A stretch of DNA of 63,710 nt from a bacterium (GCA_009924895.1 RFQR01000007.1:1-63710); one strand, 5' to 3'; positions 2,541 through 44,995 are shown, counted from the first letter of the stretch. The notes: generated from the sequence alone by a model not told the origin. Numbers and translations are program-made.

Positions 2541-3191
2541 TTATGCGCCGACTGGATACTCAGGATCGTCCTTGCAAATATTGCGAGGAGATTTCCGTTG
2601 AGGACGGTCAGGTTTCGCAGAAGTGTCGACGTCAGGAAGCGACGGACGCTCAGCTCTTGCGGCTGGATTCCTGCCGACCTCATTCTGGAGATACGCAATA
2701 TCAATGAACTGATCCGCAGCGCGGCGCAGTTCGTCAGCGACCATGACTGGGTTTGTCTGTAGAGTCGAGACGACGCTCACGCGTTTTCCCTTTCCCATCA
2801 GCGCCAGTACAAGGGCTTTGAAATCACCGTCACCGGTGAAGAGCACGATGTGGTCGACGTTCTCGGCGAGACGCATTGCGTCCACCGCGAGTTCGATGTC
2901 CATATTGCCTTTCACTTTTTTCCTTCCAAAGGAGTCGGAGAACTCCTTTGTTGGCTTGGTGACGATGGTGTAGCCATTGTAGTCGAGCCAGTCGATCAGA
3001 GGACGAATTGATGAGTACTCCTGGTCCTGGGCAAGCGCCGTGTAGTAGTACGCTCGCACGAGGTGTCCCCTCTTTCGAAAGTACGTCAGAAGACTCTTGT
3101 AGTCGATATCGAACCCGAGGGCCTTGGCTGTCGTGTAGAGACTTACCCCGTCAATGAAGAGGGCAATCCTCTCGTCGTCGCGGAAGTACAT
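2541..3191 (-). CDS. NYN domain protein (LabA/DUF88)
   Basis: FIDG, KGNMDIELAVD, LFTGDGDF motifs; SD AGGAG at 3200-3204. Confidence 0.92.
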   Translation of the reverse strand: MYFRDDERIALFIDGVSLYTTAKALGFDIDYKSLLTYFRKRGHLVRAYYYTALAQDQEYSSIRPLIDWLDYNGYTIVTKPTKEFSDSFGRKKVKGNMDIELAVDAMRLAENVDHIVLFTGDGDFKALVLALMGKGKRVSVVSTLQTNPVMVADELRRAADQFIDIAYLQNEVGRNPAARAERPSLPDVDTSAKPDRPQRKSPRNICKDDPEYPVGA

Positions 3192-3348
3192 GCGACTTTC
3201 TCCTGTTTGCGGCTAACGCCGCGTTAGGTACCGAGGAAATCTCGGAACCAAGTGCATTATGCATTGAAATACGTATATGTCAATCGTAATTTTAGGAATA
3301 TACACATTCAGGCGTACAGCCAAAAAGTCTACCGTACAGTGATATACT

Positions 3349-3714
3349 GTGTCGGTGATATATCAAACGATAGTACTGCTTCATATTGCGGGTGCACTTG
3401 CGTCAGGTACCGTGGGTGCATGGTCGCTTGTTACGGTAGCGAAGCGACTTTCGCACTTCTTCCAACTCCAGGCACACCTCCTTGCGGCTCTTGCAACATT
3501 TGAGATACTCACCGGTACTACTCTTGCAGTCCTTTCACCGCAGATGACGGCACAATCGCTCTGCGCCAACATCGCACTGTATCTTTTTGCAGTAGCATTT
3601 TTAGAAGCGCTTTTACTCCAGCGTACGGTCGGCAGCGTTCAGAACACTCGTGTGCTCGCGCCGGTTGCTTTCAGTTGCATAGTCTTTATCGTCGTTCTTT
3701 CAGCTGGTCTGTAG
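3349..3714 (+). CDS. Hypothetical membrane protein (4 TM)
   Basis: Hydrophobic ORF 3 nt upstream of the NRAMP gene. Confidence 0.65.
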   Translation: MSVIYQTIVLLHIAGALASGTVGAWSLVTVAKRLSHFFQLQAHLLAALATFEILTGTTLAVLSPQMTAQSLCANIALYLFAVAFLEALLLQRTVGSVQNTRVLAPVAFSCIVFIVVLSAGL

Positions 3715-3717
3715 CAT

Positions 3718-5091
3718 ATGAAGGCGCAGGATATTGTCGAAGACTTTTTTAAAGCACCGGCAATTGTCCTCGAAGAAGGCGTCGAGCTGGGTGAAAAAAT
3801 TCAGGACGAGCTGGTGAGTAAACTACCTCTGAAGCAAGCAGAAGAGTATGTAAATACCCTTGGCCCCGGCCTTATAACGGGTGCGGCAGATGATGACCCG
3901 TCTGGAATTGCAACGTATTCTCAAGCGGGCGCACAGTACGGGTTTCAGCTCCTTTGGCTTGCGCTTTTTACCTTTCCCCTTATGGCTGTCGTACAGGAGA
4001 TGTGCGCACGCCTCGCGCTTGTTACGGGGCAGGGACTCGCCGCGAACATTCGCGAGCGTTATCCGCACGGGGTATTGATTCTCTGCACAACGCTTCTCTT
4101 TGCAGTGAACACATTCAACCTGGGTGCTGATCTGGGTGCAATGGCAAAAGCGATGCAGCTCTTGTTTCCGTCGCTTGATTTTACGTTTCTCGTTGTAAGC
4201 TTTGCCCTTGTCTCTCTCATGCTGCAAGTCTTTACGACGTATGCACGCTATGCACGATATCTGAAATACTGCACGTTGGCGTTGCTTTCGTATGTTGCTG
4301 CGGCGTTTGTTGTTCAGATAGATTGGACAGCCGTCGCTCGGTATACACTCGTTCCGTCGATAACCTTTTCGACTAACCAAATACTTTTGATATGCGCAGT
4401 ACTCGGCACCACCATTTCGCCCTATCTTTTTTTCTGGCAAACAGCACAGGAGGTCGAAGAGGAGATACTGCAGGGTAAAAATACGCTTGAGTTGCGACAG
4501 GGCACGAGTGACATTGAGATAAAGCGTATGCGCATCGATGTCTGGAGCGGCATGTTTTTCTCGAACCTTGTCATGTTTTTTATCATTGCAGTGTGTGGCG
4601 CGACACTCTACGTTCATGGCATCACCACAATTACGAGCGCCGATGAGGCGGCCGCTGCGCTGCGCCCGCTTGCTGGAGAGTTTGCATATCTCTTGTTTGC
4701 TCTTGGCATCATCGGCACCGGCATGCTTGCGGTGCCGGTTTTAGCAGGCTCCACATCGTATGCTCTTTCAGAAAGTTTCGCATGGGATATGGGGCTGTAC
4801 CGAAAACTGAACGAAGCATATGCGTTTTATGGCGTCATCATCGTCTCTATGCTTCTTGGTATTGCATTCAATGTGATCGGAATAGATCCAATTAAAGCTC
4901 TGATCTACTCTGCAATCGGCAATGGGCTTATTGCGCCGGTTCTACTCTTTTTTGTGGTGCGCCTCAGTAGCGATGCGTCAATTATGGGGGAGCTCATAAA
5001 TACGCGCCTCATTACACTTCTCGGATGGAGTACCGTTGTGCTTATGGCACTCTCTGGCAGCGCCGCTATCGTGGCGCTGTGTGTATCGTAA
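3718..5091 (+). CDS. NRAMP-family divalent metal transporter
   Basis: GPGLITGAADDDPSGIATYSQAGA and LGTTISPYLFFWQ motifs. Confidence 0.93.
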   Translation: MKAQDIVEDFFKAPAIVLEEGVELGEKIQDELVSKLPLKQAEEYVNTLGPGLITGAADDDPSGIATYSQAGAQYGFQLLWLALFTFPLMAVVQEMCARLALVTGQGLAANIRERYPHGVLILCTTLLFAVNTFNLGADLGAMAKAMQLLFPSLDFTFLVVSFALVSLMLQVFTTYARYARYLKYCTLALLSYVAAAFVVQIDWTAVARYTLVPSITFSTNQILLICAVLGTTISPYLFFWQTAQEVEEEILQGKNTLELRQGTSDIEIKRMRIDVWSGMFFSNLVMFFIIAVCGATLYVHGITTITSADEAAAALRPLAGEFAYLLFALGIIGTGMLAVPVLAGSTSYALSESFAWDMGLYRKLNEAYAFYGVIIVSMLLGIAFNVIGIDPIKALIYSAIGNGLIAPVLLFFVVRLSSDASIMGELINTRLITLLGWSTVVLMALSGSAAIVALCVS

Positions 5092-42723: not shown

Positions 42724-42803
42724 GCACCAGAGTATACCTTCTCTCTCCGTGTGAGGGTGCAGCGCAGTGGATACGGTAGAGAAAATGAGGTATGATGCCG
42801 CGC

Positions 42804-43646
42804 ATGGCAGTTGAAAAAGCAGTTGAACAAGCGGCGCATACGCTCGCCGCTTCTACCGGTCTAGAGCATGAGGCGGCACACCATACGGGCATTCACGTAG
42901 CGCTTGCAGCCGAAAAAATTGGTACGTTTTTGGGGCTCCCCATCACCAATACGCTCCTCACGAGCTGGATTGTCATGGCGCTTCTTATCGCTGTTGGGCT
43001 TTGGATGAACAGGCGCGTCGCGCGCGTACCCGGACGGCTTCAGACTGCGCTTGAAATGGTGTTTAGTTTCTTTTATGACTTTGTCGCTGATACGCTCGAG
43101 AGTCGCGAACTGGCACGGAAGTTTTTCCCGCTCCTCATGACCACGTTTTTTTTCATTTGGATTGCAAATGCGGTCGAATTTACTCCTGGTATCGGATCAA
43201 TCGGATTTTTCCACGAAGGTGGGGAATTCACCCCGCTCTTTCGTTCGGTCAATACCGATCTCAACATGACGCTCGCGCTTACGTTTATTGCGGTGGGGGT
43301 CATTGAGGTCACCGGGGTATTAGTTCTCGGATTCCGCACGTATATGAGCAAATTTTTTACCCTCAAGTCGCCGGTTGCGACCATGGTGGGCATTATCGAA
43401 CTGGTAGGAGAGCTTGCGCGCATCGTGTCATTTTCGTTTCGTCTTTTTGGGAACATTTTTGCAGGCGAAGTTCTGATTGCAGTCGTCGCGTTTTTTGTTC
43501 CGTATGTTTTGCCGGTACCGCTTATGGCATTTGAGATGTTTGTTGGTCTCGTACAAGCCGCAATCTTTACGCTCCTTATGCTGTTCTTTATCAAAATGGC
43601 GATTACGCATCACGATGAAGGAGACGAAAAGGCACACGCCCACTAA
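42804..43646 (+). CDS. atpB: F0F1 ATP synthase subunit a
   Basis: ITNT, FRSVNTDLN, SFSFRLFGNIFAGE, VQAAIF. Confidence 0.95.
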   Translation: MAVEKAVEQAAHTLAASTGLEHEAAHHTGIHVALAAEKIGTFLGLPITNTLLTSWIVMALLIAVGLWMNRRVARVPGRLQTALEMVFSFFYDFVADTLESRELARKFFPLLMTTFFFIWIANAVEFTPGIGSIGFFHEGGEFTPLFRSVNTDLNMTLALTFIAVGVIEVTGVLVLGFRTYMSKFFTLKSPVATMVGIIELVGELARIVSFSFRLFGNIFAGEVLIAVVAFFVPYVLPVPLMAFEMFVGLVQAAIFTLLMLFFIKMAITHHDEGDEKAHAH

Positions 43647-43650
43647 ATAG

Positions 43651-43670
43651 TTTTCCACAGCGTTTCCACA
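43651..43670 (+). promoter_or_regulatory. Two tandem DnaA-box-like 9-mers
   Basis: TTTTCCACA (fits TTWTNCACA) and GTTTCCACA (1 mismatch). Confidence 0.35.
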
Positions 43671-43690
43671 TATACACACGATGTGTGTAT

Positions 43691-43718
43691 TTGACGGGAA
43701 AGTACAGGTTGTTACTAT
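43691..43718 (+). promoter_or_regulatory. Promoter TTGACG-N16-TACTAT
   Basis: Precedes the non-coding structured unit. Confidence 0.55.
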
Positions 43719-43724
43719 CCTCAG

Positions 43725-43928
43725 TAGGTTGGTCCTCTGGTAACGGAGGTAACAGCGTCTCCGACGCCGTGGGTCTCAGACTCATTAAGTCGTGGTACGG
43801 AATAGCCGTTCCTCTGCCTCCCAGAGGTCGTGCCCAGCAAGAGCCTCGGCTCACCCATGTTGTGCATGTAAACGGGTAATACCGTATATTCCCTTGTGGG
43901 AAAGACTTGTCGCCACACTACCAGCCTC
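43725..43928 (+). ncRNA. Unknown multibranched structured RNA candidate
   Basis: 5'/3' closing stem, several internal hairpins, no SD-led ORF, flanked by promoter and terminator. Confidence 0.55.
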
Positions 43929-43932
43929 ATTT

Positions 43933-43971
43933 TGCGGGTCGCTCGTTCCACGAGCGACCCGCATTTCTTTT
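43933..43971 (+). terminator. Intrinsic terminator tgcgggtcgctcg-ttcca-cgagcgacccgca-tttctttt
   Basis: Perfect 13-bp stem plus T-tract. Confidence 0.8.
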
Positions 43972-44010
43972 GCGTAAAAAAGAACGAATATTGCGCAAGC
44001 GGTCAATGTA

Positions 44011-44039
44011 TTGACTTAAGTGCAATTTTAGTGTATAAA
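44011..44039 (+). promoter_or_regulatory. sigma70 promoter TTGACT-N17-TATAAA
   Basis: Upstream of the 44099 gene. Confidence 0.65.
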
Positions 44040-44098
44040 TCCTTTACCGCTTCAATGGGAGTGGTATACCAACATACACACAGAAAGGGTTACTACAA

Positions 44099-44995
44099 AT
44101 GAGAAGGATCATGCTTTCCGTTGTCGCACTCACGAGTTTCGTGGGCGTCGCACAGGCAGAATCGATCTCAACCTCAAGTGGGTTTTCACCTGCTGTCATC
44201 GTTGAGGCGTTCAGAAACTGGCCCACCGAAGATAAGTCGATGCGTTTTGCGAACCAAACGCAATCTTCCTTCTTCAAACAATTCGGTGCTATGGACCTCA
44301 GGCCCTACAAGGGAATTCTTTGGGGCATGGGAGGACGGTGTGGCGAGGTGAATACGTTTCTCGCCGAGAATGGGTTTCCTGACGTGCGTTTGGACGATGG
44401 GCCGGACTGCGTTGGGGCTGCGGGTGTGTTCAAGAAGGAAGTCAAGCACAAATCACCTGGCACCGAAACCGTCATGGACGTTCCTTCGGGGCGCTACCAA
44501 GGCGCCAAGTTCAGTCACTTTGAGTTTGCGAGGAGTCGGGGTGGTGATGTCATACTCCGAATTCCGTCGGAAGAGGAAGGGTGGTCGCTCAATATCAGTC
44601 CTGTCAGCAAGCATTACGCTGATTTGAACGCCTACACTCACGTCCAAAAGATGGTCGAAGATATGAAGCAAATCCCAAGTCGGGAAGGCTACACCCATCT
44701 CGAACTTCCGGCTGCGAAGATGCGTGTCGATGTGGATGTGAAATGGGTCCTGAACCTCAGAATTGGTGGCGACAAAATTGATCAGGCGTTCAAAAAAGTG
44801 GTCTTTGAATTCGATCACGTGAGCGCGAAAGGTGAGGCCGCTTTCGGTGCAGGCGCGACCCGTTCCATGGGAGCGAAAACCCATGAGAAGGTCTTTCGCA
44901 TCGATGGTTCCTATCTTGCATGGTTCAGCAAGGATGGGATGAATGAGCCAGCGCTTGTTGTCTACGTGGCGCAAGACGGTTGGATCAAGAAGTGA
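44099..44995 (+). CDS. Secreted protein with serpin-like C-terminus
   Basis: Signal peptide; LELP, IDQAFKKVVFEFDHVSAKGEAA, TRSM, FRIDGSYLAWF; hairpin at 45006-45032. Confidence 0.6.
   Translation: MRRIMLSVVALTSFVGVAQAESISTSSGFSPAVIVEAFRNWPTEDKSMRFANQTQSSFFKQFGAMDLRPYKGILWGMGGRCGEVNTFLAENGFPDVRLDDGPDCVGAAGVFKKEVKHKSPGTETVMDVPSGRYQGAKFSHFEFARSRGGDVILRIPSEEEGWSLNISPVSKHYADLNAYTHVQKMVEDMKQIPSREGYTHLELPAAKMRVDVDVKWVLNLRIGGDKIDQAFKKVVFEFDHVSAKGEAAFGAGATRSMGAKTHEKVFRIDGSYLAWFSKDGMNEPALVVYVAQDGWIKK

Follow-up and report, generated by a model that had tools for sequence, protein, structure and literature searches.

The 63,710-nucleotide (nt) stretch of DNA analyzed in this study (RFQR01000007.1:1-63710 of GCA_009924895.1, here called the window) contains, directly 3′ of the ATP synthase gene atpB, a multibranched RNA of ~205 nt (~43725-43928). 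The 3′ two-thirds of this RNA are a miniature of helices h7 to h10 (the V2 region) of 16S ribosomal RNA (rRNA). The organism is most likely an uncultured Parcubacteria-type bacterium, one belonging to the candidate phyla radiation (CPR), in which this folded RNA of unknown kind most likely represents a genuine small RNA gene, and we hold with high confidence that the gene is conserved and derived from 16S rRNA. The RNA has a defined anatomy, is conserved with compensatory changes, resembles 16S rRNA, and is patchily distributed.

An earlier note, made from the sequence alone, had described a stand-alone, noncoding, multibranched RNA with a promoter and a terminator of its own, and this description is supported by the z scores of the fold, the insertions and deletions (indels) of a sister strain, and the promoter and terminator sites. 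Homologs with compensatory changes, on which the note had made its proposal depend, exist in other CPR bacteria (L082 and L181). As for the new class of CPR noncoding RNA that it envisaged, the RNA does stand alone outside the described families, but its core is a copy of 16S h7-h10, which the note had missed.

Similarity to helices h7 to h10 of 16S rRNA

The sequences GGAAUAGC, GGUAAUACCG.AUA, and GAAAGAYUURUCGCC are present in the RNA in the order and fold of 16S rRNA. The RNA thus has in common with 16S h7-h10 (~122-239 in Escherichia coli) the ordered segments GGAAUAGC, GGUAAUACCG.AUA, and GAAAGAUUUAUCGCC, together with h7, the GG/CC pairs (G43799-G43800 with C43882-C43883), h8, and h9. 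A scan pattern, GGTAATACC-N(8-38)-AAGAYTTRTCGCC, which was derived solely from the two RNAs then known (those of the window and L082), matched at least 119 metagenome loci; among the matches listed, nearly all are 16S genes, at positions ~150-190. A profile of 16S 5′ regions matches the RNA of L082 with an E value of 9e-10 and that of the window with an E value of 2e-8, and the aligned stretch runs from TGGT.CGGAATAGC through a hairpin, GGTAATACCG.ATA, and another hairpin to GGGAAAGATTTATCGCCAT. Since this profile is biased by the scan pattern, the test was made on the part upstream of the pattern only. The upstream flank matches the correct place in 16S rRNA in all three lineages, with 2 to 5 of 500 shuffles scoring as well, and in the window this flank (GUGGUACGGAAUAGCC) is identical to 16S genes at 16 of 16 nt.

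The three RNAs were aligned with 15 diverse real 16S segments, and the RNAalifold consensus fold of this alignment is the textbook h7, the GG/CC closing pair, h8, and h9. The three RNAs form 18 to 19 of the 23 consensus pairs versus 20 to 23 in the real 16S rows, a shortfall of which part stems from L181, where the alignment is shifted at a bulge. GGAAUAGC is identical in the RNAs of the window, the sister strain X4, L082, and L181; more generally, the invariant nucleotides of the RNA are those of the h7/h8/h9-10 junction of 16S rRNA, and the peripheral helices vary as they do in rRNA. The layout consists of one hairpin followed by GAAAGAUUUAUCGCC, i.e., the form without h10, and this single-hairpin layout agrees with the 16S rRNAs of the CPR, which are reported to lack h10 (PMC9297842).

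The small subunits of CPR bacteria are without the surface helices h6, h10, and h17 (PMC9297842), and the fold of an rRNA domain together with the loss of these neighboring helices would suit an RNA that is supplied in trans and joins or docks onto the small subunit as a piece of the ribosome. This is very improbable, because stem P1 closes the RNA on itself and leaves no strand free to pair with the rest of 16S rRNA, and because absence from most relatives is unlike an essential rRNA segment.

Only ~85 nt of the ~1,500-nt 16S rRNA are represented. Unlike that part of 16S rRNA, the RNA is closed by an unrelated stem (P1), its 16S-like part is preceded by two unrelated hairpins (P2 and P3), and a promoter and a terminator of its own flank it; it is not reported by the Rfam small-subunit rRNA models. 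Neither the first 50 to 66 nt (P1 to P3) nor the expansions score better than shuffles when they are aligned locally to the 5′ ends of 16S rRNA and to complete 16S genes. Origin of the 5′ module and the expansions from elsewhere in 16S rRNA was therefore rejected, as shuffles score equally. In L082 it is tempting to see the 5′ end of the RNA, AGGUUGAUCC, as homologous to that of 16S rRNA; this was also rejected, the likeness being no better than shuffles and absent in L181. A full 16S gene was likewise dismissed: the RNA measures 137 to 205 nt between promoter and terminator and has no Rfam small-subunit match.

Homologs in other lineages

With the window RNA as the query, neither nhmmer nor blastn found a match in 80 atpB loci of related Patescibacteria genomes. 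The homologs were found via long atpB-atpE spacers read by eye (L082) and via a motif scan of metagenome contigs (L181). The 289-nt atpB-atpE spacer of L082, which recurs with identical sequence in four other samples (L083-86), contains in order the promoter TTGACG-17-TATCAT, the RNA starting from UAGGUUGAUCC, the closing stem, a terminator, and the atpE promoter. The blocks GUGGUNNGGAAUAGC, GGUAAUACCG, and GGGAAAGAYUURUCGCCA are common to the RNAs of L082 and the window. In L181 the order is atpB, RNA, terminator, and atpE. The RNAs of the window, L082, and L181 are ~205, 137, and 190 nt long, respectively, and the AtpB proteins of the three carrier lineages, all of which are Paceibacteria-like, are 62 to 80% identical. 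In each of them the cassette of promoter, RNA, and terminator lies directly 3′ of atpB. Its place is bounded precisely by the stop codon of atpB on one side and the conserved promoter of atpE (TGTGGTAnAnT) on the other.

A covariance model of 141 positions was built from L082 alone; the E values of this home-made model are rough. It matches L181 (34.8 bits, E = 1.6e-5) and the window RNA (31.3 bits, E = 9e-5), in both cases over model positions 1 to 141, and elsewhere, across the 63.7-kb window and another 30 atpB loci, it has no match. A single copy of the RNA is present in the window and 30 related loci. A scan of viral contigs gave no match. The small-RNA model also matches, over its whole length and with 31 bits, a real 16S gene, possibly of planctomycete type (L179, 228-382), and the tip of the h6 of this gene (CCACCUUCGGGUGG) aligns onto P2. 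The idea raised by this alignment, that P2 is a relic of h6, is unsupported by sequence tests.

The h8-like arm is a plain 5-bp hairpin in L082 and bears in L181 an expansion different from that of the window. The motif GGUAAUACC.UAUA is present twice in L181, its second copy being inside the h8 expansion, and this duplication hints that the segment may be a functional or recognized site. Within L181 (1420-1470), the extra motif copy GAGGUAAUACCUAUA is found in a hairpin loop just 5′ of the regular GGGUAAUACCAAUUA.

Secondary structure and compensatory changes

The minimum free energy (MFE) of region 43715-43975, terminator included, is -110.1 kcal/mol, with a z score of -6.1 against shuffled sequence; the z score is -4.3 for 43724-43929, which excludes the terminator. 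The closing stem P1 (43726-33/43920-27) had been proposed in the earlier note; it is present in the fold, and two of its positions covary among the window, L082, and L181 (G-C/A-U/C-G and U-A/A-U). Helices P2, P3, h7, h8, and h9 differ in sequence between the lineages yet remain paired. The counterparts of P2 are CCUUC-UUUG-GGAGG in L082 and CGUUC-UUU-GAACG in L181, and the place of P3 is occupied in both by a hairpin of wholly different sequence. The h9-like hairpin is remodeled and still paired in X4 (UCCCG-ACCA-CGGGA), L082 (CUGUC-UUCG-GACGG), and also L181. The hairpins that the note had drawn at 43734-49, 43755-67, 43811-27, 43841-52, and 43889-902 are all paired in the relatives or in X4.

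The sister strain of run X4 is 99.2% identical to the window over 5.9 kb, with 47 differing positions. As many as 20 substitutions and 3 indels (+1, +2, and -2) fall within the 157 nt of 43809-43965, compared with 27 differences in the other 5.7 kb. By our own calculation, this tract, which spans the 3′ part of the RNA and the terminator, is ~25-fold above the background rate, and from its sequence it looks like a recombination or gene-conversion import of a divergent allele, i.e., a mosaic. In the first expansion hairpin (43811-27) a G-C pair is replaced by U-A; all four changes in the 11-bp expansion helix (43829, 43833, 43834, and 43867) keep or create pairs; and the terminator has a compensatory change from G-C to A-U at 43936/43960. 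The 16S-like junction nucleotides and the entire 5′ module are unchanged. One pair at the base of h8 is broken (43809/43872), and the same U-U is found in L181.

Two long-range stems of the earlier note, cgtgggt/acccatg and ggtacg/cgtgcc, had to be abandoned: they are absent from the MFE fold, have no counterpart in the relatives, and conflict with the conserved h7-like helix (43788-96/43912-19), and the X4 changes fit the 11-bp helix instead. The extra hairpin of the MFE fold at 43769-43785 is putative, as neither L082 nor L181 has a counterpart of it and it is invariant in X4.

The note had seen no known RNA family, and this is confirmed by Rfam 15, which at the gathering score gives just four tRNAs in the window and at E ≤ 10 gives nothing relevant for 43600-44110 or for the L082 homolog. 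RNase P, signal recognition particle RNA, 6S RNA, and transfer-messenger RNA were rejected, as neither hallmark motifs (by eye) nor model matches were found. A ribozyme, as the note had suggested, or a riboswitch would fit a multibranched fold followed by a terminator. We consider either extremely unlikely, given that no Rfam model matches even at E ≤ 10, that no known ribozyme core is seen, and that the conserved unpaired nucleotides belong to the rRNA junction. The 14-bp terminator has no evident competing antiterminator, and the downstream gene varies, i.e., it encodes a secreted protein in the window and is atpE elsewhere.

Promoter, terminator, and noncoding status

Transcription is predicted to start at ~43725 (UAGG), downstream of a promoter-like site (Table 1). 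L082 has a site of the same layout, TTGACG-17-TATCAT (10/12), and that of L181, read by eye, is weaker (TTGATT-17-TACAAA); in all three lineages the -10 element ends 5 to 6 nt 5′ of UAGGU. Of the 14 bp of the terminator hairpin in the window, 10 are GC, and terminators are also found 3′ of the RNA in L082 (by eye) and L181. Overlapping open reading frames (ORFs) of 61 to 83 amino acids extend across the RNA region; that they are not genes follows from the +1, +2, and -2 indels of X4 and from the homologs, which share no ORF.

The RNA always lies directly 3′ of atpB, and a structured RNA is known from an analogous position: the ATPC motif of cyanobacteria (Rfam RF01067) has the gene for ATP synthase subunit a on one side and that for subunit c on the other. 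The RNA could accordingly be a cis element of the atp transcripts, either an atpB 3′ untranslated region with a stabilizing or processing role or an insulator between atpB and atpE. Although both are structured RNAs between these two genes, the ATPC motif is a small element inside the operon transcript, whereas the RNA described here is larger, is 16S-like, has its own promoter and terminator, and gives no match to the RF01067 model. In addition, the conserved -35 and -10 elements at a fixed distance from UAGGU argue for a start of its own, the RNA has been retained in the window though atpE is gone, and a spacer of 60 to 100 nt suffices in most relatives. A cis element is, in our estimation, improbable.

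Distribution of the cassette

The cassette is found in 3 of ~25 lineages whose AtpB is at least 60% identical to that of a carrier. The noncarriers have either a 60- to 100-nt spacer holding only the atpE promoter or unrelated inserts. The three carriers lie scattered over the AtpB tree; each has closer relatives that are devoid of the RNA, and three changes are needed. Such a distribution would be expected from numerous losses or, alternatively, from homologous recombination that spreads the cassette by way of its conserved flanks, and the X4 mosaic indicates that such exchange between strains happens.

The scattered carriers, the empty sites of close relatives that keep just the atpE promoter, and the divergent allele imported into X4 would also be expected of a selfish or neutral islet, spread by homologous recombination via the atpB and atpE flanks, whose fold serves its own stability or spread. 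We regard such an islet as unlikely. The cassette has neither terminal inverted repeats nor a transposase, integrase, or nuclease gene. A mobile-element signature composed of a flanking 8-nt direct repeat, the sole one, and a 9-nt inverted repeat was rejected because it is estimated to be at chance level. An islet would leave the 16S-junction identity of the conserved nucleotides unexplained, and it is compatible with a role of the RNA as a decoy rather than exclusive of it.

The contents of 20 other long atpB-atpE spacers and that of L219 differ from the cassette and include small ORFs on the minus strand, tandem repeats, and other hairpins. In L219 (2320-2518), which has no 16S-like RNA, TTGCTT-17-TACAGT is followed by ~60 nt including GGAACGGAAAGUCAGGGGAG and by a GC-rich terminator, a unit that may be another small RNA. 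The spacers of L098 (507 nt; 3190-3537) and L002 (360 nt; 3745-4100) carry a small gene on the opposite strand for an apparently hydrophobic protein. Spacers of 183 to 189 nt in L003 (3835-4017) and L017 (3739-3927), whose sequences are unrelated to that of the RNA, contain GC-rich hairpins as well as promoter-like sites. In two more distant Patescibacteria the spacer is filled with long, perfect tandem repeats (ACAGACA ~15 times at L054 1793-1900 and GTGAGTA ~8 times at L039 3745-3810). Small inserts seem to have landed repeatedly in the atpB-atpE spacer.

Genomic context and feature coordinates

The promoter-like site, the structured RNA, and the terminator are contained in the spacer 3′ of atpB (43647-44098), and their coordinates are listed in Table 1. 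In every relative examined, atpB is followed by atpE, atpF, atpH, and atpA; none of these four genes is present anywhere in the 63.7-kb window, where atpB stands alone (42792-44995). The RNA is flanked by atpB and atpE in L082 and L181 and by atpB and a gene for a 298-amino-acid secreted protein, which has no Pfam match, in the window. No ribosomal protein gene adjoins the RNA, and the terminator separates it from the next gene. After the terminator, AGTGCAATTTTAGT (~44018-44033) resembles, as read by eye, the atpE leader of relatives (TTTAGTGCAATTAGT in L082), and this remnant suggests that atpE once followed here.

The DnaA-like boxes that the earlier note had placed upstream of the RNA are the two TTTCCACA repeats. 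TTWTNCACA occurs 6 times in the window versus 5.98 expected, and no such boxes are found upstream of the L082 and L181 homologs, so this claim does not stand. The repeats, which are spaced 11 nt apart and are seen in the window lineage only, are probably outside the conserved unit. An 11-nt imperfect hairpin, CATATACACAC-GAT-GTGTGTATTTG (43669-79/43683-93), overlaps the -35 element of the promoter. ATACACAC occurs again at 44074-81, immediately 5′ of the start of the next gene.

Table 1. Features of the RNA and its locus, in window coordinates
Feature	Position	Strand	Remarks
atpB (ATP synthase F0 subunit a)	42792..43646	+	Pfam PF00119 (ATP-synt_A), E = 3e-40
Two TTTCCACA direct repeats and imperfect hairpin	43652..43693	+	Repeats at 43652-59 and 43663-70
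Promoter-like site, sigma-70-like	43691..43718	+	TTGACG-16 nt-TACTAT with upstream TG
P1, 5′ strand, AGGUUGGU	43726..43733	+	Closing stem; pairs with 43920-43927
P2 hairpin	43734..43749	+	CCUCUG-GUAA-CGGAGG
P3 hairpin	43755..43767	+	GCGUC-UCC-GACGC
Extra hairpin	43769..43785	+	GUGGGUC-UCA-GACUCAU; window lineage only; MFE only
h7-like helix, 5′ strand	43788..43796	+	AGU.GUGGU; pairs with 43912-43919; aligns to the 5′ strand of 16S h7
GGAAUAGC	43799..43806	+	Corresponds to the h7/h8 junction of 16S rRNA (GGGAUAAC in E. coli)
h8-like arm	43806..43875	+	Base CCGUU/AACGG; ~60-nt lineage-specific expansion
Expansion hairpin CCUCUG/CAGAGG	43811-27	+	In h8-like arm
Expansion helix, 11 bp	43829-39/43858-68	+	In h8-like arm
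Expansion hairpin GAGC/GCUC	43841-52	+	In h8-like arm
GGUAAUACCGUAUA	43875..43888	+	Counterpart of 16S GCUAAUACCGCAUA (h8 3′ side and junction)
h9-like hairpin	43889..43902	+	UUCCC-UUGU-GGGAA
AAGACUUGUCGCCACACU	43902..43919	+	16S-like GAAAGAUUUAUCGCC segment in the layout without h10, then h7 3′ strand
AAGACUUGUCGCC	43902-14	+	
P1, 3′ strand, ACCAGCCU	43920..43927	+	
Intrinsic terminator	43933..43971	+	14-bp stem (43933-63), 3-nt loop, UUUCUUUU
Spacer with promoter-like site of next gene	43972..44098	+	

Discussion

Several observations weigh against the proposal favored below, a small RNA gene whose product mimics a 16S domain and acts as a decoy. The promoter of L181 is weak and was not flagged in the promoter scan, and three metatranscriptomes of one study (X15-X17) contain nothing matching this stretch. 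The cassette is dispensable, being absent from most close relatives. Covariation rests on three lineages and one strain allele, i.e., on few independent events, and some of the compensatory pattern of the 16S-like part may have been taken over from real 16S genes via gene conversion. For the 56-nt 16S-like stretch, no other contig of at least 80% identity is present in the four runs holding the organism or its sister strain, which argues weakly against ongoing gene conversion. Finally, the real 16S sequence L179 scores level with the window RNA under the L082 model, so that the family and 16S rRNA are not separated by it.

The absence of the cassette from most relatives, the metatranscriptomes in which expression was not seen, and the only partial likeness to 16S rRNA would all be natural for a decaying relic, i.e., a functionless pseudogene fragment of a 16S copy that once lay beside atpB. 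Against decay, three lineages with AtpB proteins 62 to 80% identical have retained the architecture, a promoter-like site whose distance is fixed, a terminator, and a closing stem foreign to 16S rRNA; the sequences have diverged beyond nhmmer detection while the helices are still paired; and the within-helix changes of X4 preserve or create pairs, the broken h8-base pair (43809/43872) apart. We judge a relic to be quite unlikely.

The proposal that we favor starts from an independent small RNA gene, which would be a compact accessory cassette that a few Paceibacteria- or Kaiserbacteria-like CPR lineages carry after the stop codon of atpB and before the promoter of atpE. The site beside atpB is probably permissive and recombination-friendly rather than indicative of a functional link. 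The RNA consists of two modules, a family-specific 5′ part (P1, P2, and P3) and a 3′ miniature of the h7-h8-h9/10 junction without h10, and the free RNA may fold like the corresponding corner of the 30S body. It may then serve as a decoy or sponge for a factor that recognizes this junction, titrating the factor or holding it in reserve. The ribosomal proteins bS20, uS17, and bS16 bind this neighborhood of the 16S 5′ domain, as known from 30S structures and footprinting, and bS20, uS17 or bS16, or a 30S assembly or processing factor, would be candidate partners. Taken by itself, the decoy mechanism is a speculative suggestion that we think less likely than not to be correct; the combined picture, a stand-alone RNA that mimics a 16S domain and acts as a protein decoy, is put forward tentatively, at somewhat under even confidence.

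The closest known principle is that of the rRNA-mimicking leaders of ribosomal protein mRNAs (S8/spc, S15, L1, L20, and S6:S18), in which the part of an rRNA that a protein binds is copied by a short RNA. Those leaders, however, sit in the 5′ untranslated region of the regulated mRNA and are usually a small motif, whereas the RNA described here appears, as far as can be read from the DNA, to be a separate transcript beside atpB in which a whole multi-helix junction is copied. To our knowledge, rRNA mimicry is known only as short motifs within ribosomal protein mRNA leaders, and we know of no described mimic of h7-h10. A literature search for stand-alone rRNA-mimicking small RNAs and for partial 16S copies in the CPR returned nothing relevant.

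Decoy small RNAs (6S RNA, CsrB/RsmY, and Y RNAs), which are abundant, are similarly stand-alone structured RNAs that imitate nucleic acid and thereby sequester a protein, a role that is only predicted in the present case. 6S RNA mimics open promoter DNA, CsrB and RsmY mimic mRNA leaders, and bacterial Y RNAs carry a tRNA-like module; none of them, as far as we know, imitates an rRNA domain, and none of their Rfam models matches the RNA. Fragmented or partial rRNAs, i.e., the rRNA-in-pieces of organelles and orphan partial genes, likewise are rRNA-derived sequence away from rRNA genes, but fragmented rRNA pieces pair with other pieces and are essential, whereas the RNA described here is self-closed and dispensable.

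If the favored proposal is true, the ribosome assembly machinery would be addressed in a new way, by a free-standing gene in which a whole rRNA junction of several helices is replicated, in a group of bacteria, the CPR, whose ribosomes are already unusual in missing helices and proteins. For genome annotation, it would mean that a fragment bearing 16S signatures but lying outside an rRNA operon is not necessarily a pseudogene or an assembly error. With a size of 137 to 205 nt, the RNA can be made in vitro, which offers a concrete handle for testing. In its broadest form, which we consider doubtful, the proposal would describe a new class of small RNA: a trans-encoded, self-closed replica of h7-h10 that may control ribosome biogenesis or ribosomal protein homeostasis through sequestration of an assembly factor or a protein of the 5′ domain, or may dock on the reduced small subunit as an accessory RNA, and that strains would pass to one another as a modular cassette, its core conserved and its peripheral helices swappable.

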